Of a stretch of DNA of 44,842 nucleotides, positions 1-39,961 are shown one piece after another. Position 1 is the first letter of the stretch; each line of letters begins with the position of its first letter. Location: NCBI GenBank assembly GCA_964463805.1, contig CAYXDS010000002.1, forward strand, positions 1 to 44,842, in the 5' to 3' direction. A model generated the notes under the pieces. The model ran no database searches, was not told the origin of the DNA, and saw only the letters and a program-made list of their open reading frames with translations. This DNA comes from an uncultured Elusimicrobia bacterium (lineage in GTDB: Bacteria > Elusimicrobiota > Elusimicrobia > F11). The translations under genes and the position numbers were made by a program.

Positions 1-613
1 GAGCGATCGCGTTGCGGTGTGAGTAGCCGAGCTGTGTTATCGCGCCGGTTTTGTACATATTGCCGAGATCCATACCGAAACCGCTGCCTGAAAAACCGGC
101 TACGTTTTGATGAATCGCTTTCAAAGTGGCCCCCAACGACATCTTCGCGTTCATCTTATATCCGTCGGAGAACATCAAAGCGGTGCGGGATTCGCCAAAC
201 GAACCCTGTTCTTGGCCCGTCTCCGAAAAACGGCGGAAATTATCGGCGCGCAAATTCACGATGCCGATGCCCATCGTGCCGTAGCGCTGCGTCGGACGCG
301 CTACATTTAATGAACCATAACTAAAACCTTCATAAAGAGTGGAGTACATCATCACCGCGTCGCCGGTTTGCAATTGCGTGAGGCCGGACGGGTTCCAATA
401 AACGGCCGACGCATCGTCGGCAACACCCGTATGCGCTTTTCCCATTCCCAGCGAACGTGCGCTCGCCGCAAAATCAAGGAACGCGCCCGGCTGGCCTCCG
501 TCGTGGCCGGTCAAATCGATGATCTCGGCTCTCACATGGTTCGAGGAAAAAATCGAACCCGTGAAAAGCAGAATCATCGCTAGGCGTTTCGTTACATGTG
601 TGATTGACTTCAT
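1..613 (-). CDS. PorV/PorQ-like (FadL-fold) outer-membrane beta-barrel protein, 5' part only (gene continues past the left window edge)
   Basis: Absent from the ORF track because it has no in-window stop. Hand reverse-complement translation from ATG 613-611 gives MKSITHVTKRLAMILLFTGSIFSSNHVRA/EIIDLTGHDGGQPGAFLDFAASARSLGMGKAHTGVADDASAVYWNPSGLTQL..., open to nt 1. It has a signal peptide plus the N-terminal 'FL..aSARslGMG....DDASAvyWNPsGL' signature I associate with PorV/PorQ and other FadL-type barrels. Confidence 0.6.
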   Translation of the reverse strand, partial: MKSITHVTKRLAMILLFTGSIFSSNHVRAEIIDLTGHDGGQPGAFLDFAASARSLGMGKAHTGVADDASAVYWNPSGLTQLQTGDAVMMYSTLYEGFSYGSLNVARPTQRYGTMGIGIVNLRADNFRRFSETGQEQGSFGESRTALMFSDGYKMNAKMSLGATLKAIHQNVAGFSGSGFGMDLGNMYKTGAITQLGYSHRNAIA

Positions 614-664
614 GTAACAAAGATAAAAATAACAGCTTAAGAGCGCCTTAAGGTCGGATTAAAA
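614..664 (-). promoter_or_regulatory. Conserved upstream module, copy A (promoter/operator candidate for the PorV-like gene)
   Basis: Plus strand GTAACAAAGATAAA(614-627)...CTTAAG(636-641)...CCTTAAGG(646-653)...GATTAAAA(657-664). The same blocks lie at identical distances from the ATG of the giant gene (15922-15972). Confidence 0.5.
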
Positions 665-711
665 GGAATGGAAGTTTAAATCAGATTGAAAAAACAAAGC
701 GTTTTTTCGTG

Positions 712-3700
712 TTACTGCGCGACGGCCAATTTGAACTTGTAGGTTCCGCGCGACGGAATCTTCAGGATCGCGATGTAACCGCCGTTGCCGGTGCTGCCCA
801 CATCCCAACGAACGAGGTTTTCGCCGGGCTGGCCTGAAATTTTACGATGCATCACATTCTCGCCGGTGGGCGTAATGATCGTAAGATCGACGTTGTCGTC
901 GCCGTTTTGCAGATAGAAGCGAATTGTGGCGCCGGTTCGTGCGCTGCATGGATTCGGATAAATTGTGAAATTCACTTCGGACGGCGTGTCGAGCACGGTC
1001 ACAGTCACTTGAGCGGCCGCCGAACGCACGCCGTTCGAGTTCCAAACAACCAATTCAAACACGAGCTTGGTCGGACCGATGACGGCCGGCGCTTGGAAAT
1101 GCGGCGTCGGCGTATCGGCGCCGATCAACACGACCGTGGGACCGCTTATTTGTTTCCATTCGTAACCCGCATAGGTCGCTTGCGTTCCAGCACCTTCACT
1201 CATCCCTAGTTGTACGTCCGTCATTTCCGGAACGGTCTGGTCTTTACCTGCGATTTGGAACGGAGCTCCCGGAGCCAACTGCGGAGCCGGCTCAACGGTC
1301 ACCAACACGTCGTCGCTGCCCGACAACACACTGTCGCTGGCCGTTAGACGTAACACATAGTCACCGGGTTGAGAAAATTGTGCGGTTGTCGCCAACGATG
1401 CAACGTTACCGAACGTGACCGTGCCCGGGCCGCTCACTTTACTCCACGTGACCGTAAACGCGCCGGGCGGATTCGGTAAACCGTCGTCGCCGGCCAAGCC
1501 GAACAAATTCGCAGGCGCGGGCAACGTCACTGAGAAATCGGATCCAGCGTTTACGGTCGGCGCTTGATTGCCGCCGGAGCTTGAATTTACCGTGATCGTC
1601 ACATCACTCGTCGTCGACAGCGCGCTGTCGTTCACCGTCAATCGAAGCACATACACGCCGACCGCTGAGAAATTCGCGGTCGTCGCCAAATTATTCGCGT
1701 TACCGAATGTGACCGTACCGGGACCAGTTACGAGACTCCACGTGACAGTGAACGCGCCGGGTGGATTTGGCAAACCATCGTCGGTGGCCGAACCGGACAA
1801 ATTCGCGGCGGCCGGCAATACAATCGTTTGATTGGGACCGGCGTTTGCCGTCGGAGGCTGATTCGAGCCCGAACCCGCGTTCACGGTGACCGTTACATCG
1901 CTCGTCGCAGTCAATTCGCCGTCGTTCCCGGTCAACCGCAGAACATAAATACCGACTGCCGAGAAATCCGCAGACGTCGCCAAATTGTTTGCATTACCGA
2001 ACGTAACCATGCCCGGACCACTCACTTTACTCCACGTTGTCGTCAATACGCCGGGCGGGTTCGGCAGTCCGTCGTCACTTGCCGAGCCGGACAGATTCGC
2101 AGAACCCGGCAAGATGACCGTTTGATTCGATCCGGCGCTCACGATTGGTTTTTGATTGCCACCGGTCCCGCCTTCTTCATTCGCCACAATCGTCACATCG
2201 CTGGTGGTCTTTAATTGGCCATCGTCCACGGTGAGTCGCAACACATACGTACCGGCGGAAGAGAATCCGGCCGTCGTCATTAAATTGTTCGGCTGACTGA
2301 ATGCAACGATTCCCGGGCCGCTGACTTTACTCCACGCCACCGTGAACGCGCCCGGTGGATTTGGCAATCCATCGTCGCTGGCGACGCCCACAAGAACGGC
2401 CGACGCCGGTAACGTTATGCTCTGGTTCAATCCGGCGTTTGCGGTCGGCGGTTGATTGCCGCCCGTGCCGCCGGTGACATTCGCTTCGATTCTCACGTCG
2501 CTGGTCGCTGAAAGCTGACTATCGCTTACCGTGAGCCGCAGCACATAAATACCAGCCGAAGAGAACCCAGCGGTTGTGGCCAACGAATTAACGTTTCCAA
2601 ATGTTACGGTTCCGGGACCGCTCACCTTGCTCCAAACCGTCGTGATTGCGGCTGGCGGGTTCGGGAGTCCATCGTCGCCGGCCGAACCGGTCAAGTTCGC
2701 CGACTGCGGCAACGTAATTATTTGATCGGGCCCCGCATTCGCCGTCGGTTTCTGGTTGCCCTCCGTTCCGCCATCTTCGTTCGCAGTGATCGTTACATCG
2801 CTGGTCACCGTCAGTTGACTGTCGCTCACGGTCAATCGCAACACGTAAATTCCGGCCGAGGAGAAATTCGCGGTCGTTACCAACGCGTTCTCATTTCCAA
2901 ATGTCACGGTGCCAGGACCGCTTATTTTCGTCCACACGGACATAATCGTAGACGGCGGGTTCGGCAATCCGTCGTCTGAGGCGCTGCCATTCAGGTTTGC
3001 GCTCGCCGGCAACGTGATCGTTTGATTGGCTCCGGCGCTCGCGGTCGGAGGCTGGTTGCCGCCCGTGCCGCCGACCACATTCACTTCGACCGGAATGTCG
3101 GCGCTTCCGATTAACTCGCCATCGTTGGCAGCCAAACGCAGTACGTAATTTCCGGCCGATGAGAAATTTGCGGTGGTCGCAATCGCACTTGCGTTGCCAA
3201 AGGTCACGGTGCCAGGACCGCTAACTTTGCTCCACGCATACGTGAGCCGTCCCGGCGGATTCGGCAAACCGTCGTCGGTAGCGCTGCCGCTTAAATTCAC
3301 GCCGGAAGGAAGCGTCGTCGTCAATCCCGGGCCGAGCGTCACAATCGGACGTTGGTTGCCGCCGGTACCGCCTTCTTCATTAACCGTCATCGAGACCAAC
3401 GCCGTATCCGTAAATTCGGTATCGGAAATCTTATAGGTGAAACTGTCGAAACCGACGAACCCGAGCGCCGGCGTATAACTCAGCGTGTTGTTCGAGTTGA
3501 TGACGACCGTGCCGTGCGCGGGCGTTCCGACCGATATGACCGTCAACGCGTCGCCGTCCGGATCGGTATCGTTTGAGAGAACTGGAACGAAGGTCGCCGT
3601 GTTGCGGATCGCCGTCGCATCATCATCGACCGCGTCGGGCGGATCGTTTCTTAAGTTGCCGTTTCCGTCCAAGTGGATCCTTAAGCGGATTGTTGAAACG

Positions 3701-6700
3701 TTGCTGTCCACCTGACCGTCGTTCACTTTGTACGTAAAGTCGTCCGTGCCCGCGTAATTCGAGGCCGGTGTGTAGGTGATGTTCGGCGGCGTGCCGCTGA
3801 TCGAGCCGTGCTGCGGTTGCGTCACGATCGCGAACGTCAGCGGGTCGCCGTCGGGATCGCTACCGAATAAAGTGATGTCCTTGGCGACGTTCACGACCGT
3901 GTGTAGAGATTGTCCTTGCGTCAGTGGCGCGTTATTGTTCGAACTGCGCACGGTGATCGTTACGTCGTCGGAACCGCTCAATTCCCCGTCGAACGCGGTC
4001 AGGCGTAAAATATACACGCCCGATTGCGAGAAGTCGGCCGTCGTCGCGAGCGCGTTCACATTTTCGAATGTAACGTTGCCCGGGCCGCTCACTTTGCTCC
4101 AGGTGGTCGTTAGAGTTCCGTTCGGTAAATCGTCGTCCGACGCACTTCCGCTCAAGATCGCGCTCGACGGCAGCGTGATCGTTTGGTCATTTCCGGCATT
4201 CGCGGTCGGATATTCATTGCCGCCGGTGCCGCCGGGCCTGTTGGCTGTGATCGTCACGTCGGCGATGCCGCTAAGTTCGCTGTCGTTCGCCGTTAAACGA
4301 AGTACGTAAGTTCCCGCCGATGAGAAGTTTGCGGTCGTGGTCAAATTATTCGCGTTGCCGAATGTTACCGTGCCGGGGCCGCTCACTTTGGTCCAGAGGT
4401 ACGTCATCGCGTTGGGCGGATTCGGTAATCCATCATCAGTAGCGCTACCGGAAAGGTTGGCCGCTGAAGGAAGCGTGATCGTTTGATTGGAACCGGCGTT
4501 AACCGTCGGCCGTTGGTTCCCGGTGCCCGGCGTATTTACCGTCATCGTCACGTCACTGGTCGAACTCAATTGGCTGTCGTCGGCGGTCAGACGCAACACA
4601 TATGTTCCCGCTTGTGGGAAGCTTACGGTCGTCGTCAAAGAATTTACGTTTGTGAAATTCGCGCTTCCAGGACCGCTGACTTGACTCCACGTGATCGTCA
4701 CCGTATTCGGCGGATTCGGTAACCCGTCATCGCTGGCCGATCCGGCCATCGTCGCGCTCGCCGGCAACGTTATCGTTTGGTTCGGACCCGCATTCACAGA
4801 CGGCGATTGATTTCCACCGGTACCGCCGTCTTCGTTGACCGTCACCTCAATTTCGTCGTGTCCTGATAATTGAGTGTCGTTCGCCGTCAGACGCAGCACA
4901 TAAATTCCGGCCGAGGAGAAATTCGCGGTCGTGGTCAACGCGGTCGCATTTCCAAACGTCACGTTTCCGGGGCCGCTCACTTTGGTCCAAGCGTACGTCA
5001 ACGCGTTTGGCGGATTCGGCAATCCGTCGTCGGTGGCCGATCCACTCAAGTTCGCGGCGGCCGGCAATGTAATGGTTTGATCGGGCCCCGCGTTTGCGAC
5101 CGGTGATTGATTTCCGCCGCTGCCGCCTTCCTCATTCACTGTCACCGTAATGTCGTCTTGTCCCGATAACGCACTGTCGTCCGCCGTCAATCGCAGCACA
5201 TAGATTCCGGCTGAGGAGAAATTCGCGGTCGTGGTCAATCCATTTGGATTTCCGAACGTCACCGTCCCGGGGCCGCTGACCTTGCTCCAGACGAACGTCA
5301 TTGTATTTGGCGGATTGGGCAGACCGTCGTCCGTCGCGCTGCCGCTTAAATTCACAGGGTCGGGCAACACAATGGTTTGATCCGGGCCCGCATTCACGAC
5401 CGGCGATTGGTTTCCAGCGTTGACGGTGATGTCCACGGCCGCCGACGCCGAAAACTCTCCATCGGAAATCGTGTAATTAAACGAGTCGGACCCCACATAG
5501 TTGTTGGAGGGCGTGTACGTCACCGTATTATTCGAATTGATTGTTACGGTACCGTGAGACGCAGGACCCGCTGCTGTTACCGTTAATGAATCTGCGTCGG
5601 GATCGCTGTCGTTCGTCAACACCGTCACTGTGACCGGCGTGTTTTGCCCCGTACTCGCTGAATCATTGACCGCGTTCGGTGGATCATTTTGACCGTTGCC
5701 ATTTTGATCCGGGTGCACATTTATTGAAACGGTTGCTATGTTACTGTCCAAGCGAGCGTCATTTGCTTTAAACGTAAACGAATCAAGTCCGATGTAACCA
5801 GAGGCCGGCGTATAAGTGAGATTCGGAGCGGTGCCGCTCAATGTCCCGTGCTGCGGCTGTGCAACAACAATATAGGAAAGAGGATCTCCATCTGGATCGG
5901 TCGCTACCAGTGTCACCTGTTTTGCCACGTTGACAACGGTATGAACCGTTTGATTCTGTGCGACCGGCGCCTGATTGTTCGAATTGTAAACAGTGATCGT
6001 CGCGTCGCCGGTGCCCGAAAGCTCACTGTCGTTCGCGGTCAAACGCACGACATAGACGCCCGACTGAGAAAAGCTTGCGGAGGTTGTCAATGCCGTTGCG
6101 TTGCCAAACGTGATCGTGCCCGGGCCGCTCACTTTGCTCCATGCATATGTCAACGCATTCGGCGGATTGGGTAAGCCATCATCGTCCGCACTGCCAGACA
6201 AATTCGCCGACGCCGGCAACGTGATGGTTTGATTCGGTCCGGCGCTCACAGTCGGTTTTTGGTTGCCACCCGTACCGCCTTGTTCATTCACAGTGATCGT
6301 CACGTCGCTCGTCGCGCTCAATTGGCTGTCGCTCGCGGTCAAACGCAGCACGTAGATTCCCGCTTGTGAGAAATTGGCGGTGGTCGTTAAGAAACTCGGG
6401 TTCATGAAACTGACCGGACCGGGACCACTCACTTTACTCCATGCGTACGTCAACTGGCCCGGCGGATTTGGTAAACCGTCATCGTCGGCGGAGCCTGAAA
6501 CCACGGCACCCGAAGGCAATGTGATCGTTTGATTATTTCCCGCGGATACGGTCGGCCGCTGATTGCCGCCCGTGCCGCCTTGTTCGTTCACGGTGATCGT
6601 CACGTCGCCGGTCGCACTCAATTGACTATCGCTTACGGTTAAACGCAAAACGTAGATCCCCGCTTTTGAGAAGCTGGCGGTGGTTGTGAGCGCGTTTGCG

Positions 6701-9700
6701 TTACCGAATGTGACGTCACCGGAGCCGCTCACTTTGCTCCATGTGTAGGTCAACGTATTCGGCGGATTCGGTAGACCGTCGTCGCTCGCGCTACCGGACA
6801 AATTCGCGCTCGACGGCAAAGTGATCGTTTGGTTCTGTCCCGCGTTCGCCGTCGGCGGCTGATTGCCGCCCGATCCTGCGTACACGGTCACCGATATCTC
6901 GTCGAATGTCGGGAATCCGCTGCCGTCGTTGGCGGTCAGACGCAACACGTATGTTCCCGGCATACTGAAATTCGCGAAGGTGGTCGGGCTGTTCGGGTCA
7001 TCAAACGTGACGCCAGGGGGGCCCATACGATAACTCCATAAGCTCGTCAGCGTGCCATTCGGGCGGCCGTCGTCGGTCACCGAACCCGCCATCTGAACGC
7101 GCCCCGGAGGCAATGGCGTCGAAAAGTCCGGACCCGCCGATACCGACGGGAGTTGGTTCCATCCGCTCTGCATCGCCGAAAGGAATTGGGACATGCACAA
7201 CGAAACGACGCGACGTTTGGACTGTGAATTGGACGTGTCGTACGTTTCGACCGACAGCGTGATCGTTTCGTCTTCGATCGACGCGCCGACCACCGCAACG
7301 CGCATCGTCGCGGTAATCAACGAAATCTGACGCAACAGCGGATCAAGATCCAAGAAATACAGATTTCCGTTCGATGTGTCGTAAACGCGCATGCGCGTCA
7401 GGAACGGATTGAAACCCATGTCATAGATTCCGTTGAAGATGAAAAGCATGTTATCGCCGTAAGCGGTTACGTTCACGTTCGGCTGGATAACGGTTGCATC
7501 GGGAATCGCTTTGCGCATAGTTTCCGAATCGAGATCGGCCACGAAATAGCGTCCGTTCCCCATCGGACCGCCGCTAGTATCCACGGTGGTCAGCAATCGG
7601 CTGTTCCGTGCGATGCTCAGCGGCATGCCAGCCATACCCGCGATCGAGATCGCATGTTGATTTGACAACGTGCCGGTCGGGGAAACCGTAAACCGATCAA
7701 TCGAAGAAGCGGAATTACCGACCGCGAACAAATACTGACCGCGAATCTCAATGAATTTATCGGCCAGCGTCGGATAAGAACCTATCAACGAACCGTTCGA
7801 ATCGTAGGCTTCGATCGCTGCCCCGCGAATCACCGATAGAACATAAACAATACCGGTGTTCGAAACCGCCACTTCCGCCTGAGATGAAATCGTTCCTTGC
7901 GTCGGGAATATCGAGCTTTGCTGCGTGGCCAAATCTTCGAGCTTTACTTGTCCCGTCGCCGAGCCGGAGGCCGGCGCGGTGAGCACCGCTACGTATCGTT
8001 TGTTTTCCGACACGTCCGCGTAACGGATGTTATTGTCTTGGTCGAGCGGCAGCAACGATGCGGCGGTCCAGATATCGACAACCGACGCCCAATGCGGCAG
8101 GCGATTTACGATCGACGGACGGTCGGTCATAACCGCCATGCCTTTGCCGAGTCCGACTAAATCGCCTCCAATCGACGAATGCGTGGTTTCGACCCACACC
8201 GGCGCCGCGCCCGGCAGCGGGCAACGCACGTCGTCGTGATCGGTGACTTGAACGCTTACATCGTCGAAGGACGAATATTCTCCGTCGGTCGCCGAGAGCC
8301 GCAGTTGATAGGTGCCCGCTTCCGAGAAACCGACCGTGGTGATCGCTTGGTTCGGCGTCGAGAAATACACGTTGCCGGGACCGCTGATTTTCGTCCATGA
8401 AATCGTCGTAGCGCCGGGCGGGTTCGGCAAACCGTCGTCGGTAACGGAAACACCGACGCTGATTTTAGAAGGCCGTTCGACCACGCGATCGGGCCCCGCA
8501 TCCACCACGGGGCCGCTGTTCGCGCCGATCGTCACATCATCGGTCCGCGTTAAATGACCGTCGAACGCGCTCAAACGCAACACGTACACGCCGGTCGTTG
8601 AGAACGAAGCAGTGGTATTAAGCGCATTGGCGTTGCCGAAAGTGACCGTCCCAGGACCACTCACCTTGCTCCAGGTTGTCACAAGCGCCGACGGTAATCC
8701 GTCGTCGGTTGCGGTTCCGTCCAATGTCGCGCCCGCGCCCAACTCGATCGATTGATCCGGCCCCGCATTGACGGTCGGCGCCGAGTGGATCACAATGCGC
8801 AACTTACGCGAGGTTTGGAATTGACCGTCGTCCGCCGTCAGCACCAAATTATAAAGGCCTTTCGCGTCGATCGACGCTTGCGTGACGAGCGCCGACGCAT
8901 TCGTGAACGTCACGTTGCCCGGGCCGGTCAGCTTGCTCCATGTGGTTGTCAATGCTCCTGGCGGGTTCGGAAATCCGTCGTCGCTCGCGGTGCCGCTTAA
9001 ATTCACGAGTGTCGGCGATTGCGTGTACTCAATTAATAAGGTGGATCCGGGATCGACGACAGGAGGTTGATTGATCGTGACTGTGACTTGGTTCGACACG
9101 CCGACATTCATCGCTTTATCGACCGCGAGCGCGCGAAGCAGATGAGAGCCGTTCAACTGAGCCGTGTTCCAATCGATTTCGTAGGGCGCTGTGGAATCGA
9201 CGCCGATCAGCGTATCGCCGTCGTAGAAATTTACGCGGAATATGCCGCTCGCGTCCGATGCGGTCGCGGCGATCTTCACAAGGCCGTTGACGGTGGAACC
9301 GTCGGTCGGCGTGGAAATGCTCACGAGCGGCGGAGTTTCATCTGGTAACGCTCCCCCGCTGCAGAGGCTTGTGAATTGATACGTTTTGCCGCGACCGGTC
9401 GCGACCAAATCCGACCGGCCGTCCAAATTCATGTCGGCGCCGGCGACGGCCGTCTCAACCGCATTCGCGTTCGGTTGCCATTTAATACCGGTATTACGTC
9501 CATTGTTGAGGCCGTACATTTGCAGCACCGGCGTGAAAGGCGGACTGAAACCTTGAACGACCACATTCTCGCCGGTCGTCGAATTTTCAAAGGGCCACAT
9601 CAAGAAGTGCGAAACCGGATACCATTCTTCCCAACTGTCGAGCAGCGAGAACGTGGTTTGGTTGCCGTTGTTCTTGACCACGCGCACAAAGCTGTGAACG

Positions 9701-12700
9701 ATGGTGGCGGAAGGCGCAATCGACCAAATAATATCATCGCGGCGACCATCGCCGTCGGCGTCGCCGATCGCAATGACGGGCGTTCCTCCCATCAGCGTGT
9801 TTGGATTCGAATCAACCGGTTGGCCCGGCCACGGGTTTGCAAAGTTACCAACGTTCCACAACACGTTTAACTTCGCATCAAAACCGGCATAAGCGATGTC
9901 GGGACGTCCGTCTCTATCGAAATCTCTCACGACGAAACCGAATCTTCCCGTTCCGAACAAATTCATCGCGACGATCGTCTTCTCGTAGTTGCCGTTGCCA
10001 CGGTTCAGATAGACCCAAATCTGTCCTTTCTCAGGCAACACGCTTGACGTATACCCGCTGACCGCGATGTCCATTTTTCCGTCATAGTTGAAGTCGGCGA
10101 ACGCGACGTCGCCTTTGAGTAAACCGCTGTCGATCAAGACCGGCGTGCCGAATTGATTGTTGCTGTACGGCCAACGCAACAGCCGCGGATTGTCCGACGC
10201 ATCTTTGCCCGAGGCGATCACATCGCCGCTGTCGGGCATGATCACAGCGCCGCCCGTCGTGATGTTGCTGTTCGGCAAGGGAATCGGCACGTAAGGAGTC
10301 TCGGGATTTCCGGGCACGTTATGAAACACGACTACATTGCTCCCGGACGGCGTTACGCCGGTTCCGACCATATCCATCAGGCCGTCGTGGTCGAAGTCGC
10401 CAGACTTCAAGGTACCGGCGCCGCCGAAAAAACCGGAAGCGGCCATGTCGGTCTCGTCGAAACCAATACGCCCACAATTAAAGACATGAACGGGCGCCGA
10501 AACGGCGGCATTCCCGACCGTGTCGAACGCCTTCGCGGTCAACGCGCGACGTCCACCCGCCGAATTCGCCGTATTCCATGTCGTCGAATACGGCGGGTTT
10601 GTGGCTGATCCAATCAAAATGTTTTCGTTATAAAACTCGACGCGCGCGATCGCATTGTTGTCGGATGCACTCGCCGAAATCGTAACCTGGCCCGTCACAA
10701 CATCGTTTTCGAGCGGAGACGTAATTGATACGGTCGGTAACGTGTGATCGACGATTACATTTACAGGCGCCGACGTTCCGATCGAACTGTTCATCGCGGT
10801 GGCGCGTGCGGTTAAAACATGCGGGCCTTCGGTCAGTGCAGACGTATTCCAATTTATCGTGTAAGGAGAATTCGTCGCCGTGCCGATTAGATTGCCGTCC
10901 GCGAGGAACTCGATTTTTTGAATACCGGACAATGCTGACGCGACTGCGGACACCGTCGCTTGAAGTCCTACAAATCCGTTGTTGGTCGGCATCGTAATCG
11001 CAACCGTCGGAACCGTGCAGGTCGCCGTGAAAAGAGCGACTTTTCCATGGCCCCATGACCCGTCCTCAAAGGCGCCAAAATCCACAAAATCAAGACGACC
11101 GTCATCGTTGAAATCACCGGCGCCGAAACCACCGAGGAAAATCCCTTGTCCAGCCGGCAAATTCCATCCCATGGAGTGGTTATAAAGACCGTTTCCGTTC
11201 GCTATATAAAGCGCCGTTTGCCCTTGATCTTGCGCTGATGGAGGAGGGGTAGAATGATCGCCTTGTACGAGGATATCTTCTCCTTTTCCAACCGAGCATG
11301 TGAACGGACCTGTCATTAGAGCATCAACGGCGAATGGCACTGTCCACGTGTCGGACTGAGAAAACGTACCGTTTTTATTTTGGAACACGCGAATCACACC
11401 GTTGGCCGTGTTCTCTGGCATTACGTCCCACACGATGTCGTTCTTGAGTCCGTCGCCATCAACGTCGCCGACCGCGACTCTCCCGAAAAACGCGTTTTGA
11501 ACCGTACCGATTTCTTTCATGGCCCAAGGACTTCCGAAATTCGGCTCACCGATCTGAGCGCCGTTGTTTTCGTAGACACGCAAAGCTTGATTTGTTCCGT
11601 TTCCATAAGAGAGAACGATATCTGGTTTTCCATCGCCGTTGAAATCACCCACATCGATTTGTCCCTGTGCCGCTGGCGCGGTATCGACCAACTTCACATG
11701 CCCATTATGGCTGCAAATAAGCTCGATAACGAAATGGAAAACGCTTCCACTGGAATTTCCGACAATCGCGATGTCCGAAAGTCCGTCCCCATCGAAATCT
11801 GCGATTTTTAAATTCCCGCCGACCAAGCCGGCCGAAGCCATCGCCACCGGAAGCCCATAGGTATGCGCGCCTGTGTGTGGCCATCGCTGCAATCCGGTCC
11901 CACTTCCACCTGAGCCGGAGGCGATGATATCGCCCGTTTCCGGAATCAACCCGATGCCACCATCCACGGTGCCGTTTATCAGGGGGACCGTCAAAAAACT
12001 CGGCGGATTCGTACGATTGTTAAAGTAGACGGCTGGATGAGGGAAATAAGGATTAAGCGAGTCAACATAATTTTCAATGAAGTCCAGCTTACCATCGTGA
12101 TCAATATCAGCGACGATTGCATCCATGCCCTTGAAAGATGGCGCCCTTGGATACGCGTGATTAGGGAAGGTCGTCAATGTGGAAGCTAAGAAGTCGCCGT
12201 TCGGGCAATTTCCACACAAATTCGAACCGCCATTCGAGACGGTCACATTAACGTCGGTAGACCACGCCTCGTGGCCCGCGTTATCGATCGCCCTCGCTTT
12301 CAGCGTGTGCGTTCCGTCTGAGAAACGCGTGGTATCCCAACGGAAATTGTAGGGGGTCGAGAGAATCGATCCCACTTGCTGCGAATCGACGAAGAAAAGC
12401 ACGCGCGCAATTCCTAAGCCGTCCGCAGCGTTCGCCGAGATCGTCACGACGCCTTGGTTCGTCGAGCTCGGCGCCGGAGACGTGATTGATACCGTCGGCG
12501 GATTGTTGTCCACCTTCACGTCTACCACCAAACTGTTGCCGGTGTTTCCGGCCGCGTCATACGCTCTCGCGATCAACGAGTAACGGCCATCGGGAACAGA
12601 TGAGGTATTCCACGTAATAGAGTAAGGGGACGATGCATCGGAACCTATCAATACGGCACCGTAATAAAATTCGACTTTCGTCACGCCGATGTTGTCACTC

Positions 12701-15700
12701 GCATCTGCGGTCAATAGCGCGTTGCCTTCCAACAACATATTCGCAGTCGGCGTTGTAATCGCAACCGTTGGTGCGGTCTGGTCGTTGTCCGATGTGACCG
12801 TAATCGACGCGCGCGCGACATTGCCTTCAGCGTCGACGGCAACGACCGTTATCACATGCGGGCCGTTAATGAATGCTTGCGAGTTCCAAATCGCGTCGTA
12901 TGAGGCCATCGCTGTGTTCGTCGAAAAAATCACCATCGAATCGACGTAGATGCGAACTTCGGTCACACCTACGTTGTCGGTCACTGTAGCGGAAACAGGC
13001 ACATTGCCTAAAACCGGCGCGTTGGGAGCGGGCGCCGTGATTTGAATGACGGGCGGCACTTCATCACGCGAGCGCGGGGGTATTCCGCAAATATTCATAT
13101 ACGGATAAAGTCCCGTATATCCGGCATAGGAGAACATTGCGCCAGGTAAAATGCCGCTGCCGATGAAATCCAATCGACCGTCGGCATCCAAATCTTTCAC
13201 GATCATTACGCCGTTCCCAAGCGCCATCGTATGCGAATTGTCCGCGGTCCAATCGGGAATATGATGATAAACGCCAGGCTGAGAAGCTTGCGGCGTGTAA
13301 AGCGATGTATGCGTCGTCCAAGAGTAATCGCGCCAATAAGCAAAACGGTTCGACGTTTGAATGACAATGTCATCCGCTTTTCTCGCCGTACCATTCGATG
13401 AACAGGTGAACGGCGCGGCGATGATGTCGGACACCGATTCGAGGGAATACCACTCGTCCGTTTTTACGAACGAACGGTTCCCGTTGTAACGGAAAACTTG
13501 AACGAAACCGCTGTTGAACGCATCGAGATCGGAAGAACCGAAAATCAAATCGTTCGATTTCCCGTCGGCATCAAGATCCCCGACCGCGACAGCCGCATCC
13601 AACGTACATTTCTTGTTGCTCACATCGGTTCGCGGCCAAGCATTGGTGCCATTGTTCCAATAAACGGTCAACGTGGGTGCATTCGGAGAGAGGAAAGCGT
13701 CCATTCTGGCGCCGGAGGTAATGATGTCGATTTTTCCATCGCCATCGATATCCGCGGCGCGCATTTTTCCGCGACCTGTGTCACCAACGACGAACGGCGT
13801 GAAATTGCCGCTTGCATCGGCGAAATAAATTCGAGTGCCGGTATCTCCGCTGATCGCTACATCGAGTCGCCCGTCCTTATTAAAGTCGGCGACAACTTGT
13901 CCGCCCCCTTGGGCGCCGACGCCGATCTCCTCTGGGGTTTGAGACCATTGATCATTTCCCAAATAACGCCATCGTGAGAATTTACCGCCAATACTACCGA
14001 CGATATCGCCGGACCCCGGAACAAATGAAACGCCCGCGGTCGGATAACTGAATCGAATCGCTTCATAGGGACTCTCAAGATCACCGGTCCCTTTATAAAC
14101 ATACGCGGGCGTGTAGTACGAGCCGCCGTTGCCGACAAGATCGAGTATGCCGTCATTATTGTAATCACCGATGTCCATGCTGGCGATAGAGTGAGGAGAA
14201 GTGTTGTCATCGGTAAAAATTCCGTCATCAAACCGATTAAATATCAGTCCGGCATTTGTCGTAAATTCAGGATAGGGGCAGCAATTGTCCGGCGGTGGAG
14301 GAACGTTCGGATCGGTGGTCACTTTGATTTGCGAGCGGCTTACGTTGCCGGCGGCGTCAATCGCTACCGCCGTCAAAATATGAGTGCCGAGCGAGGAATA
14401 ACGAGAAGTATCCCACGAGGCTGTGTAAGGCGGCGTCGTATCTTGGCTAAGCTGTGCTTCTCCGTCGACATAAAACTCCACTCTTTTTACGGAGACATTA
14501 TCGGACGCAGTCGCGCTGATCGTTACGAGTCCGTTCGGGAGCACGACCGCTCCATATAATGGAGCGGTAATTTGTACGGTTGGCGCCACTTCGTCGCCCG
14601 GCACTTGGGGAAGGCCGCAAACATTCGAATACATCACAAGCTTGGAGACCAATGCACCGCCTGTGACGCTCTTGCTCAAAAGACCGGTTCCTAAAATGTC
14701 GTATCGACCGTTTTGCATCATGCCGTATTCGCTAGCCAACGCGCCTTCACCCAGGTCCAAACCGCCTTGCTGATTGCCGGCGATCCAGTCCGGAAGGTGT
14801 TTGAATTGTCCCACCGCGCGCGGCGTGTAAAGCGCGGTGCGCATCGTCCACGGACGCGTGGTAAAAACTTCGGAGATGTCGGATTGTTGGATCACGATGT
14901 CGTCGCCGTATGTTGAACATGTGAAACGTCCGGCGATGATGTCGGTGACGCCGCCTTTCACATACCAGCGGTCGGTTCGCGTGAATTTACGGTTTCCCAA
15001 GTTACGGTAAATTTCGATAAAGCCGTTTAACGATCCGTCGAGGTCGGCGGAAGCGAAAGCGAGATCCAATTGGCCGTCTTGCCTGTCGAAATCACCGACG
15101 GCGACATTCGCATCGCCGGCAAACATAGTGGTGGCGACATCGGTGTAACTCCACGGCGCTGAAAAGTTTCCATCGTTCCAATAAACACGCAAGGTGGGAC
15201 TTGGGTTATAAATATGGAGCGGATTAAAATGGTCGACAAATCCGGCCACCACCAGATCAGGTTTTCCGTCACCATCCATGTCGGCAATGCGCAGGCGGCC
15301 ACGCGACTGACCTTTGAAAGCGTCCGTGACCGCAACTTTCGTATAAGTACCGTTCGCGGAACCGAGATAAACCCAAACGTCGTCGCCGCCGGAACGGCCG
15401 CCGCTGATCGCAATATCGGGGATGTTGTCGTTGTTCAGGTCTGCGACGGCAAAGCCCCCGTTAACGAGTCCCTCTCCGATTTGGACCGAAGACCCGAATT
15501 GGTTGTTTCCAAGATAAGGCCACTTTCTTACGGTGGTATTAAGACTGGAATCCGCGTAACAACCGACCACGCTGCCGTCGGGTAAAAAGGCCGCGCCATT
15601 GTTCGGCCCCCCGTCAGGAAGCTCAAGCAGCGTGAAATTTCCCCCGCCGTTGTTTTTGTAAACGTAACCAGCCCGGTTGTTCAAATCTCTGTTGCCGGCC

Positions 15701-15921
15701 GCCACCGCGTCGTACCAGCCATCACGGTTGTAATCGGAGATGGCCAGTGAAGCGATGCCGCGGGGAGATGTGTGGTATTCGGTATATATCCCGGCTGTGT
15801 TTCCATCGATGGAGGTAAAACCGGGATTCGTGCAGCAATCGGCCCACAGCCGATTGGGAACAAGGGCAAGAACGAAAAACGAGCCTGCAAGGCTCGTCCG
15901 AGCGAAATTCGTCCATCTCAT
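712..15921 (-). CDS. Giant secreted mosaic repeat protein (5069 aa): signal peptide, 4x[FG-GAP/VCBS propeller + Ig-like domains], ~20 PKD-like repeats, 2 cadherin-like doublets, orphan central domain, T9SS-type C-terminal sorting domain
   Basis: Single uninterrupted 15,210-nt ORF. N-terminus [30 protein letters not shown] is a signal peptide. FG-GAP/VCBS motifs include [29 protein letters not shown] and [15 protein letters not shown]. Other motif classes are listed under the sub-features below. Confidence 0.92.
   Translation of the reverse strand: [5069 protein letters not shown]
715..981 (-). other. C-terminal sorting domain of the giant protein (T9SS type-A-like / FlgD-Ig-like), aa 4981-5069
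   Basis: [89 protein letters not shown]. It shows the YPNP motif, a 'GGY..ilK' motif and a terminal K.KLAV strand at the extreme C-terminus, as in Por_Secre_tail-type CTDs. A FlgD-Ig-type fold cannot be excluded by eye. Confidence 0.55.
982..3385 (-). repeat. PKD-like tandem array 4: 7 canonical ~300-nt units (1290-3385) plus 1 divergent terminal unit (982-1290); boundaries approximate
   Basis: Recurrent unit ...NQTI(T/V)LPxxANLSGSA(S/T)[66 protein letters not shown].... At DNA level, ccgaa(t/c)gtgaccgt(g/a)cc(c/g)gg(g/a)cc recurs about every 297-300 nt. Confidence 0.8.
3386..3945 (-). repeat. Cadherin-like (bacterial Ig/Big_9-type) doublet, copy 2; boundaries approximate
   Basis: [74 protein letters not shown]... 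followed by [76 protein letters not shown].... The pattern 'D-PDGD-LT...HGT....tYTP...y.G.DsFtY' fits this class. Confidence 0.7.
3946..5420 (-). repeat. PKD-like tandem array 3 (5 units); boundaries approximate
   Basis: Five consecutive units carrying SGSA(T/S)DDGLPNPP...W(S/T)(K/Q)VSGPG...YVLRLTA(D/N)D. Confidence 0.8.
5421..5985 (-). repeat. Cadherin-like (bacterial Ig/Big_9-type) doublet, copy 1; boundaries approximate
   Basis: [74 protein letters not shown]... followed by [76 protein letters not shown].... It aligns end to end with copy 2. Confidence 0.7.
5986..7150 (-). repeat. PKD-like tandem array 2 (4 units); boundaries approximate
   Basis: Four units. Adjacent units at 6291-6590 and 6591-6890 are in exact 300-nt register and look about three-quarters identical by eye. 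Confidence 0.8.
7151..8239 (-). other. Orphan central domain (~363 aa, aa ~2561-2923) inserted between PKD arrays; fold unknown (beta-rich, possibly propeller)
   Basis: Non-repetitive stretch from ...[22 protein letters not shown]... to ...[18 protein letters not shown].... It carries none of the PKD, FG-GAP or cadherin motifs, and a single Cys sits near each boundary. Confidence 0.5.
8240..9075 (-). repeat. PKD-like tandem array 1 (3 more divergent units); boundaries approximate
   Basis: [59 protein letters not shown] and [32 protein letters not shown]. Confidence 0.75.
9076..15840 (-). repeat. Four FG-GAP/VCBS propeller + Ig-like supermodules (approx. 14290-15840, 12230-14289, 10480-12229, 9076-10479), carrying 1, 3, 2 and 1 Ig-like domains
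   Basis: Each module opens with a Cys motif ([34 protein letters not shown]) and contains repeated (D/N)x(D/N)xDGxxD(I/L)(V/A)xxG calcium-loop-like motifs. Each ends at a Cys (VCGLP, ICGIP, ATCTVP, SLCSGG). Ig-like units follow, of the type P(T/L)V(S/A)ITxPxxxxxVxGxVxIxAxASDNxGVxxVEFYVDG...PYxxxWNT....GxHxLxAxAxDxAGN. Confidence 0.75.
15841..15921 (-). other. Signal peptide of the giant protein (aa 1-27)
   Basis: [28 protein letters not shown] has a basic n-region, a hydrophobic core and an AxA-like LWA cleavage site. Confidence 0.7.
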
Positions 15922-15972
15922 GTAACAAAGATAAATCGAATTTCTTAAGAATTCCTTAAGGAAAGATTAAAA
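15922..15972 (-). promoter_or_regulatory. Conserved upstream module, copy B (promoter/operator candidate for the giant gene)
   Basis: Plus strand GTAACAAAGATAAA(15922-15935)...TCTTAAGA(15943-15950)...CCTTAAGG(15954-15961)...GATTAAAA(15965-15972). Block offsets from the ATG (+23, +33, +44 nt) are identical to copy A at 614-664. Confidence 0.5.
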
Positions 15973-15990: not shown

Positions 15991-16035
15991 TTTCACAAAA
16001 TCAGGCTGAAAAGACACGCCGGATTTTGTGTGAAA
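15991..16035 (-). terminator. Candidate stem-loop terminator downstream of the RNase E/G-family gene
   Basis: Arms TTTCACAAAATC (15991-16002) and GATTTTGTGTGAAA (16022-16035) pair with a 2-nt bulge around a ~19-nt loop. On the minus-strand RNA the hairpin is followed by AGCAUUUUCUUC. The stem is AT-rich and the loop large, so this is weak. Confidence 0.3.
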
Positions 16036-17477: not shown

Positions 17478-17495
17478 ATTTTTCCTTTTTTATTT

Positions 17496-17564
17496 GTCTC
17501 CCCCGCGAAGGCGGGGGCCCAGACACTTCAGGTGGCTGGATTCCCGCCTTCGCGGGAATGACGG
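17496..17564. repeat. REP/MITE-like nested-palindromic element, copy 1 (69 nt)
   Basis: GTCTCCCCCGCGAAGGCGGGGGCCCAGACACTTCAGGTGGCTGGATTCCCGCCTTCGCGGGAATGACGG. This forms three consecutive hairpins: CCCCCGC-GAAG-GCGGGGG, an imperfect CCAGACAC..GTGGCTGG, and TTCCCGC-CTTC-GCGGGAA. It matches the reverse complement of copy 2 at 66 of 69 positions (hand count). Confidence 0.85.
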
Positions 17565-17569
17565 CATTT

Positions 17570-18274
17570 TTATGGTTCCACCAACTGTCCGTCGGTTTTT
17601 TCCAAATATAATTTGAGTCTTTTCACGCGGAGGCTTTGAGTGGGAACACCCATCTCCACCTGCGCGTCGTCCCATCCGCACACCGCTTGAACGATGCGCT
17701 CGGGCTTCAATGTGCGTCCGGGGCCGAACCGTATGTCGAGCATGAGTCGGTCCCCTTCCAATTTCCAAGCGCGCACGCACGCGCGCACATCGATGACCAC
17801 GTCACCGCTTTCTTTTTTCTTCGTGACCATCACATGTTGCTGCTTTGAAAAATCTTCCCACTTGCCCTCGGTGCCGGCCAGCTGCGGCGCCACCAGTTCG
17901 TACGACGCCGCGTTCAACGTCTGATCGAGTGACGGAAAAAAGCGCGGAATCGACTTCACGTTGACCAGCCGATAACCTTCCGGCAAATGTTTCTGCAACG
18001 ATTCGGCGGCCGTCGTCATGTTCAATCGCGACATCAGCTCAACATCGCAATACTCGGCGTCCGATTCGTACCCGACCGAAATCGCCGGACCAAACGACAC
18101 CTTCGGCTTCGGCCGTTTTCCCTCCGACTTGGCCAGCGGCCAATCGGATTTTTCAAGCGCGCGACGCACCGCTTCGATCTGCTGCAAATGGCTCACCTGC
18201 GAAGCCACGCCGCTGCGCGAAAGTTTCAACCGTACTCGCTGCAATGCAATGATCACAGCATGTACCTGCGCCAA
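17570..18274 (-). CDS. DUF2344-type (TIGR03936-like, radical-SAM-associated) protein
   Basis: ...RVRLKLSRSGVASQVSHLQQIEAVRRALEKSDWPLAKSEGKRPKPKVSFGPAISVGYESDAEYCDVEL... matches the family pattern 'r.rf.K.G.lrf.SHL.....RA..Ra..P.a.S.GF.P.Pk.sf.paL.vG.eS.aEy.d.el'. The start is uncertain: TTG at 18274, or GTG at 18256 which overlaps the rodA stop as GTGA. Confidence 0.7.
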   Translation of the reverse strand: MAQVHAVIIALQRVRLKLSRSGVASQVSHLQQIEAVRRALEKSDWPLAKSEGKRPKPKVSFGPAISVGYESDAEYCDVELMSRLNMTTAAESLQKHLPEGYRLVNVKSIPRFFPSLDQTLNAASYELVAPQLAGTEGKWEDFSKQQHVMVTKKKESGDVVIDVRACVRAWKLEGDRLMLDIRFGPGRTLKPERIVQAVCGWDDAQVEMGVPTQSLRVKRLKLYLEKTDGQLVEP

Positions 18275-24412: not shown

Positions 24413-24422
24413 TTGTCCCTCT

Positions 24423-24491
24423 CCGTCATTCCCGCGAAGGCGGGAATCCAGACACCTCAAGTGCCTGGGCCCCCGCCTTCGCGGGGGAGAC
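24423..24491. repeat. REP/MITE-like nested-palindromic element, copy 2 (69 nt, inverted relative to copy 1)
   Basis: CCGTCATTCCCGCGAAGGCGGGAATCCAGACACCTCAAGTGCCTGGGCCCCCGCCTTCGCGGGGGAGAC, located between the rplQ stop and the mreB SD. Confidence 0.85.
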
Positions 24492-24528
24492 GACATTTTG
24501 TAATAGCTTTGTAGCTATTTTGACGTTA

Positions 24529-25884: not shown

Positions 25885-25975
25885 TTTTTTATTCTCCTGT
25901 TTTATCGTTGCAACGACATGCATCTCTCATGTGAAACACGGGATGCAGCCTTTCCGCGACGATGTTTAAAAATTT

Positions 25976-26045
25976 CGTCTTTCCCGCGAAGGCGGGAATC
26001 CAGACACCTTAGGCGTCTGGGCCCCCGCCTACGCGGGGGTGACGG
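25976..26045. repeat. REP/MITE-like nested-palindromic element, copy 3 (~70 nt, same orientation as copy 2)
   Basis: CGTCTTTCCCGCGAAGGCGGGAATCCAGACACCTTAGGCGTCTGGGCCCCCGCCTACGCGGGGGTGACGG, located between the rpsD stop and the rpoA start. Confidence 0.8.
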
Positions 26046-26050
26046 CTAAA

Positions 26051-27736: not shown

Positions 27737-27750
27737 AGTATCCTCCATTC

Positions 27751-27854
27751 GTCTCCCCCGCGTAGGCGGGGGTCCAGTCACTTAAAGTACTTACCGCCTC
27801 CAGAACTGTCTTGGCCCTACAACCTGATTAATGAATGAGGATGTAGGGTGACGG
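27751..27854. repeat. REP/MITE-like element, copy 4 (variant: left hairpin conserved, right half replaced)
   Basis: GTCTCCCCCGCGTAGGCGGGGGTCCAGTCACTTAAAGTAC... has a left arm like copy 1, with the GTAG loop seen in copy 3. The second hairpin is instead CCCTACA-(19 nt)-TGTAGGG, and the element ends in GTGACGG like copy 3. Confidence 0.6.
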
Positions 27855-39590: not shown

Positions 39591-39613
39591 AAATAATTAC
39601 TCTTTAAATAAAA

Positions 39614-39961
39614 TTAAAAATCAATCCTCGGAAGTTGAATAGCGACATCAACTCCAGCAGGCAAATCAAGTTTGCGCAATTCTTCAACCGTGCGAGCGGT
39701 CGGCTCAACAATATCCACCAACCGTTTGTGAATCCGCATCTCAAATTGCTCTCGGGATTTTTTATCGGTGTGAGGGGAGCGCAGCACTGTATATTTTTTA
39801 ATCGATGTTGGCAAGAGAACAGGGCCCGACAAATTGGCGCCGGTCCGCTGCACGGTGTCCACGATTTTCGCCAACGAATCGTCAAGCATACGGTAATCGT
39901 AGGCCCTCAATTTGATGCGAATTCTCTGTGCGTCTAATGTGGTTGCTGCACGATCTGCCAT
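39614..39961 (-). CDS. rpsJ: 30S ribosomal protein S10
   Basis: ...[41 protein letters not shown]...[12 protein letters not shown]... Confidence 0.96.

Follow-up and report, generated by a model that had tools for sequence, protein, structure and literature searches.

Two adjacent minus-strand genes in the window (the whole 44.8-kb stretch of DNA analysed here), one encoding a giant protein of 5069 amino acids with a type IX secretion (T9SS) sorting domain and the other a PorV-like outer-membrane protein, are each preceded by a copy of the same control module. The module is real and under selection, and it probably represents an activator-dependent leaderless promoter, in which a regulator of the OmpR/PhoB type would act in place of a -35 element and transcription would start at the A of the ATG. 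Most likely, we are dealing with an ordinary type of bacterial control region that occurs in an unusual combination and in an unusual host.

Architecture of the module

The 51 nt upstream of the two start codons, ATG(613) and ATG(15921), align without gaps and are identical at 39 of 51 positions, the value that an earlier reading made from the letters alone (hereafter the sequence-only reading) had reached by hand count; the four blocks described there were recovered at the same offsets in both copies (Table 1). On the coding strand both copies follow the consensus TTTTAATC-N3-CCTTAAGG-N3-TCTTAAG-N8-TTTATCTTTGTTAC-ATG. All 37 block positions are identical, as compared to 2 of the 14 spacer positions (n = 2 copies), and the mismatches, which had been described as confined to the spacers, do fall there without exception (12/12 in 14 spacer positions; p = 5.7e-10 for random placement). 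Outside the module the likeness breaks off on both sides: the upstream flanks share 21 of 99 nt (~21%), while the first 60 coding nucleotides of the two genes share 20 (33%). As the blocks are identical, the spacers randomised and the flanks random, selection acts on the blocks only. The sequence-only reading had preferred protein-binding sites to a plain recent duplication, for which it would have expected the similarity to extend equally into the flanking sequence; given the sharp stop at the module edges, binding sites are also the best-supported reading here. The two intergenic regions are AT-rich islands, as had been noted (33% GC vs. 55% for the window), and neither the CCTTAAGG-N3-TCTTAAG pair nor the 14-mer TTTATCTTTGTTAC has any further occurrence in the 44.8-kb window.

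Within the module, the hexamers TTTAAT, CTTAAG, and CTTAAG start at -50, -39, and -28, which is an exact 11-bp period in both copies. The layout is 8 + 3 + 8 + 3 + 7, with a gap of 10 bp between the proximal hexamer and the hexamer TATCTT. A spacing of 10 bp, about one helical turn, had been proposed for the palindromes, but the CTTAAG and TTTAAT cores are 11 bp apart and the lower value reflects how the blocks were drawn. The palindromic character of the blocks was confirmed in part: CCTTAAGG is a perfect 8-bp palindrome in both copies and CTTAAG is self-complementary, while TCTTAAGA is palindromic in the giant-gene copy only, the PorV-like copy reading TCTTAAGC. The distal block TTTTAATC is not palindromic.

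The identities given to the two genes were upheld by profile matches, with a T9SS type A sorting domain at the C-terminus of the 5069-aa protein (TIGR04183, 25.4 bits, cut-off 23) and a PorV-like match for its neighbour (NF033709, 88.5 bits on the 204-aa fragment). In both genes an in-frame TAA lies at -48, inside the distal block, with no start codon between this TAA and the ATG; both ATGs are thus the first possible start, and good signal peptides follow them. A terminator-like hairpin precedes each copy of the module, and shared regulation from separate copies, as already suggested in the sequence-only reading, is the best-supported view of the pair. The hairpin behind the giant gene is possibly a weak terminator, and because of this weakness some read-through from the giant gene into the PorV-like gene is possible.

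Table 1. Positions of the module blocks, genes, hairpins, and other features discussed in the text (window coordinates unless another locus is named; offsets relative to the ATG)
Feature	Position	Strand	Remarks
Distal block TTTTAATC, giant-gene copy	15965..15972	-	-51..-44; half-site 1 TTTAAT, -50..-45
Middle block CCTTAAGG, giant-gene copy	15954..15961	-	-40..-33; half-site 2 CTTAAG, -39..-34
Proximal block TCTTAAG, giant-gene copy	15944..15950	-	-29..-23; half-site 3 CTTAAG, -28..-23
14-mer TTTATCTTTGTTAC, giant-gene copy	15922..15935	-	abuts ATG; predicted -10 TATCTT at 15928-15933, then TGTTAC
Distal block TTTTAATC, PorV-like copy	657..664	-	-51..-44; half-site 1 TTTAAT
Middle block CCTTAAGG, PorV-like copy	646..653	-	-40..-33; half-site 2 CTTAAG
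Proximal block TCTTAAG, PorV-like copy	636..642	-	-29..-23; half-site 3 CTTAAG
14-mer TTTATCTTTGTTAC, PorV-like copy	614..627	-	predicted -10 TATCTT at 620-625
Giant gene, 5069 aa, 15.2 kb	712..15921	-	signal peptide, FG-GAP, Big_7, PKD, cadherin-like repeats, C-terminal T9SS domain
PorV/PorQ-family outer-membrane protein gene	1..613	-	N-terminal 204 aa, signal peptide; runs off the window
Terminator-like hairpin with U-rich run	15994..16030	-	3' of rng, 5' of the giant-gene module; intergenic z = -2.45
Weak A/U-rich hairpin GAAAAAAC/GUUUUUUC	688..708	-	after the giant-gene stop codon
Weak promoter-like site TCGACT-16-TAAAAT	16062-16035	-	inside the 3' end of rng
One-mismatch YTTAAK-N5-YTTAAK match TTTAATTTTATTTAAAG	39602-39618	-	between the 115-aa and 244-aa genes
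REP-like element, four copies	17489-17572, 24421-24499, 25967-26050, 27747-27788		intergenic, mre/rpoA/ribosomal-protein cluster
PilZ promoter region, relative L020	15763-15885	-
rplU promoter regions, relatives	L020 11435-11481; L021 11435-11514; L023 9599-9704; L024, L025, L026 tail
CTTAAG-type direct repeats, Flavobacterium MAG (L001)	4468-4484 and 6868-6895
CTTAAG-N5-CTTAAG, metagenome contig (L009)	11598-11614

Upstream blocks as candidate response-regulator sites

In both copies, each of the three blocks contains a YTTAAK hexamer, with 5 bp between successive hexamers. This is the consensus of the PmrA box, a direct repeat bound head-to-tail by an OmpR/PhoB-family regulator and known as CTTAAG/NTTAAT from Salmonella and as TTTAAG-N5-TTTAAG from Acinetobacter (PMC3973317, PMC10927774). 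A PmrA half-site overlaps the -35 (PMC4660055). PhoB boxes consist of 8-bp repeats with 3-bp linkers and stand 10 bp ahead of a TAN3T -10; the cyanobacterial SphR has at least three tandem CTTAACCT boxes, also with 3-bp linkers (PMC1906773). By analogy with these systems, the three blocks are most likely tandem sites for a response regulator of the OmpR/PhoB family, with the limit that direct and inverted repeats can be told apart only by the TTTAAT block and the flanking bases, because CTTAAG is its own reverse complement. The idea of operator or promoter sites put forward in the sequence-only reading therefore stands as far as binding sites plus promoter elements are concerned, while the separate palindromes give way to three direct repeats.

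Exact YTTAAK-N5-YTTAAK repeats are found in the 44.8 kb only in the two modules, and when up to one mismatch is allowed 8 matches are obtained vs. 0.94 expected. No regulator gene was found in the window or in the loci of its relatives. One of the one-mismatch matches, TTTAATTTTATTTAAAG, lies apart from the gene pair, in the ribosomal-protein cluster downstream of EF-G (Table 1), and is probably a chance match in AT-rich sequence.

The three-block core TTAATC-N3-CCTTAAGG-N3-TCTTAAG has a single match in 185,579 species genomes (596 Gb; the host genome is not part of this set). It is located in a Flavobacterium MAG (L001), in which an OmpR-family regulator gene is followed by a histidine kinase gene; the boxes begin at the kinase stop codon, and the next gene encodes an RND pump. 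The locus has another YTTAAK-N5-YTTAAK box, in the divergent region that the regulator gene shares with a sulfatase-family, EptA-like gene. In metagenomes, the pattern CTTAAGG-N3-TCTTAAG-N6-10-TTTATC was recovered at 14 loci, none of which carries the distal block or the full 14-mer (0/14); one adjoins an OmpR-type system, and the other 13 match the ~10 chance matches expected. On an unrelated high-GC metagenome contig (L009), a regulator gene and a kinase gene are followed by CTTAAG-N5-CTTAAG, 19 nt past the kinase stop codon, and by an MscS channel gene. The boxes of these two loci look like PmrA-box-like regulons outside the Proteobacteria. The full module was found neither in the 185,579 species genomes nor in the JGI metagenomes, and nothing in these collections, which do not include the host genome, points to a wider regulon. 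In the sequence-only reading, a motif that occurs nowhere else was one half of a refuting condition, the other half being a single read-through transcript; for the full module the result agrees with the first half, but it weighs little in collections from which the host genome is missing.

Predicted core promoter and leaderless start

The only TAnnnT hexamer common to both copies is TATCTT, at -12..-7. A scan with the sigma70 consensus gave no -35/-10 pair inside either module, and the 20 nt upstream of either ATG contain no GGAG-like Shine-Dalgarno motif, while most genes of the host lineage carry a GGAG ribosome-binding site. Bacterial leaderless genes are marked, according to published work, by a TAnnnT element ~12 bp ahead of the start codon (PMC3160421, PMC12340547). 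For the 14-mer, the best reading is a sigma70-type -10 with a discriminator, and the alternative-sigma element considered in the sequence-only reading is not borne out.

A further instance of this core was found in one of the close relatives (L020), in which a PilZ-domain gene starts with TATGTTTGTTAC-ATG, differing from the module 14-mer by one mismatch at a low-information -10 position (TATGTT at the same position as TATCTT). For a 15-nt match with one mismatch ~0.007 occurrences are expected in the ~160 kb searched, and the match abuts the annotated start. The elements further upstream are different ones, an extended -10 (TGnTATGTT) and a perfect CRP/FNR-type palindrome TGTGACCTTGGTCACA (TGTGA-N6-TCACA) at -66..-51, and from its sequence this region looks like another leaderless promoter under a different regulator. 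Because the same core is combined here with other upstream elements, the 14-mer behaves like a core promoter that can be reused, and the blocks like a regulatory input that can be exchanged.

In the seven relatives (L020-L026), rplU is preceded by a near-consensus sigma70 promoter, TTGACC-N17/18-TACAAT, the -10 of which ends 8-9 nt short of the ATG, and a Shine-Dalgarno motif is lacking; by this spacing it probably heads a ribosomal-protein operon that is leaderless or has a leader of 2-3 nt. The promoter sequences indicate that the host lineage uses promoters of the sigma70 (E. coli) type. Promoter function alone does not account for the conservation of TGTTAC, the hexamer that follows the -10 and leads up to the ATG in three promoters.

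Host, insertion site, and relatives of the gene pair

The EF-G encoded in the window is 91-94% identical to proteins from Elusimicrobiota MAGs, which places the host outside the Bacteroidota/FCB group. Type IX secretion has been studied in the Bacteroidota/FCB group, and the Elusimicrobiota lie outside of it; our search of the literature for T9SS or leaderless genes in Elusimicrobia returned nothing specific. The DNA of the window is present in activated-sludge metagenomes, with a contig depth of 2-6x; at this depth, the contigs of four runs did not recover even the second of the two module copies.

In six of the seven close relatives (RNase G 86-91% identical), rplU directly follows rng, and in the seventh (L026) a pair of Xre-antitoxin and RES-toxin genes is inserted at this junction. 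The giant gene and its PorV-like partner are absent from all seven. Since the relatives have rplU or the Xre/RES pair at this place, the site between rng and rplU is a variable one, and the two genes represent a lineage-specific insertion into it. In GC content the insertion matches the genes around it. A mobile-element origin of the insertion was considered and rejected (no plasmid match, GC like the neighbours).

Among homologues of the PorV-like protein, identity over most of the query does not exceed 49%; a single short match has 67% over 46%. The module is absent from their loci. At three of these loci (L016, L017, and L018; PorV-like proteins 41-49% identical) the gene in front of the PorV-like one is large and encodes a CTD-like C-terminus, which reaches the TIGR04183 cut-off in L018 and stays just below it in L016 and L017. 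Translational coupling of the pair, through an ATGA overlap, is seen in L017 and L018. As far as these sequences tell, the pairing of cargo and PorV-like genes is old and the separate second promoter is new. Because both copies of the module lie on one insertion and distant relatives have no intergenic module, one copy was probably duplicated from the other.

Elsewhere in the window, a REP-like GC-rich element of ~70-84 nt, with two hairpins and the core CCCGCGAAGGCGGG, occurs in four copies (one of them a half copy) and in both orientations (Table 1).

Proposed mechanism and alternatives

In the mechanism that we propose, a phosphorylated winged-helix regulator of the OmpR/PhoB family would bind the three YTTAAK half-sites head-to-tail, and the occupied half-sites would cover the position of the missing -35. 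Once in place, the regulator would bring sigma70-type RNA polymerase to the weak -10 TATCTT (-12..-7), and transcription would start at or within 1-2 bases of the A of the ATG (15921 and 613, respectively). The resulting leaderless mRNA, which has no Shine-Dalgarno sequence, would be translated from its 5'-terminal AUG. The position of the module would then be locked to the ATG because the -10 sets the start of transcription there. One signal would switch on both the 15.2-kb cargo gene and the PorV-like partner, each through its own copy, and the second copy would free the partner from read-through of the 15-kb gene. We infer the regulator and its signal, as well as activation rather than repression, from the arrangement of the sites and its likeness to known systems.

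Among the alternatives, the one that fares best, unlikely as we consider it, takes the palindromes CCTTAAGG and TCTTAAGA as an operator at which a repressor or another dimeric protein would block RNA polymerase. The perfect symmetry of CCTTAAGG and the self-complementary CTTAAG would suit such a protein, and repression is possible from sites overlapping the -35 region; however, the modules have no recognisable -35 to occlude, TCTTAAGA keeps its symmetry in one copy only, and the distal TTTTAATC, which is non-palindromic, nevertheless fits the direct-repeat consensus. Three units with an 11-bp period are moreover typical of tandem winged-helix binding, and like blocks adjoin OmpR-type two-component operons elsewhere (the three-block core in the Flavobacterium MAG and the paired CTTAAG on the high-GC contig).

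It is more doubtful still that the module belongs to a 5' UTR transcribed from an upstream promoter and acts within the transcript, by means of a CUUAAG/CUUAAG hairpin and a non-Shine-Dalgarno initiation region. The two CTTAAG hexamers can form a 6-bp stem with a 5-nt loop, but the predicted fold (~-4 kcal/mol) is no better than that of shuffled sequences (z = +0.25 and +0.15), the loop and the flanks are not conserved, and the module has no Rfam match. A weak promoter-like site, TCGACT-16-TAAAAT, is available inside the 3' end of rng, upstream of the terminator-like hairpin; such sites are, however, at chance level (6 found, 10.3 expected), and the PorV-like copy has no counterpart. The non-pairing distal block and a TAnnnT at exactly -12 would also be left unexplained.

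Two further readings are very improbable. The first treats the module as a duplication relic or a cassette boundary that reflects shared ancestry and has no regulatory meaning, in line with the location of both copies on one insertion absent from the seven relatives and with distant relatives in which the PorV-like gene is joined to the cargo gene without an intergenic module, but neutral decay would not confine all 12 differences to spacers or end the similarity so abruptly on both sides, the copies do not sit at the two ends of the insertion, and no plasmid matches it. In the second, which has as little in its favour, TATCTTTG would be the -7 box (TAnnTTTG) of a Bacteroidota-type promoter carried along with T9SS-type genes from the FCB group; it does match this box and the genes are T9SS-type, yet the host belongs to the Elusimicrobiota and its relatives use TTGACC/TACAAT, no TTG is found at -33 (expected ~19 bp from TAnnTTTG), the 14-mer core precedes, with one mismatch, a native PilZ gene in L020, and the GC content of the cassette equals that of the rest of the window.

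Implications

No new kind of mechanism is indicated by the module. If confirmed, the activator-dependent leaderless promoter would be a clean natural case in which a leaderless core promoter is joined directly to an activator array of the OmpR/PhoB type, and in which a duplicated promoter spares a small partner gene the dependence on a 15-kb read-through. It also provides a cis-element, TTTAAT-N5-CTTAAG-N5-CTTAAG-N10-TATCTT-N6-ATG, with which the regulator and regulon of T9SS-type cargo could be sought in uncultured Elusimicrobiota, while TATNTTTGTTAC-ATG can serve as search pattern for the core promoter. On a more speculative note, the cassette could be a self-contained transferable unit, in which a giant T9SS-type cargo and its own PorV-like shuttle, each under a two-component-controlled leaderless promoter, were inserted at a recombination-prone rng-rplU site. 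We give this low probability; if true, the module would mark a signal-responsive regulon made up of cargo/PorV pairs in an Elusimicrobiota lineage.

Comparison with known systems

The closest parallels are of three kinds. With the PmrA (BasR) box of Enterobacteria and Acinetobacter, the module shares the YTTAAK half-sites, the 5-bp spacing, the direct-repeat order, and a candidate overlap with the -35 position. It differs in having three half-sites instead of two and an apparently leaderless promoter, in belonging to a different phylum, the Elusimicrobiota, and in its targets, which are a T9SS-type cargo gene and a PorV-like gene, whereas PmrA targets LPS-modification genes.

The Pho boxes (E. 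coli PhoB and SphR) have in common with it the 8-bp units, the 3-bp linkers, and the resulting 11-bp period, as well as a distance of ~10 bp to a predicted TAN3T -10, in place of a -35. The SphR boxes come nearest in number and sequence, with three units and a CTTAA-containing consensus (CTTAACCT). On the other hand, the 3' half of the unit is AAGG/AATC in the module and AACCT in the Pho boxes, and no phosphate gene is linked to the module within the window.

Finally, the leaderless promoters of Actinobacteria and Deinococcus-Thermus resemble the module in the TAnnnT at ~-12, in the lack of a Shine-Dalgarno sequence, and in the use of the first available start codon. Those promoters are mostly constitutive and consist of a -10 alone, whereas the module adds a candidate upstream activator array, and it does so in a lineage whose genes mostly carry Shine-Dalgarno sites.
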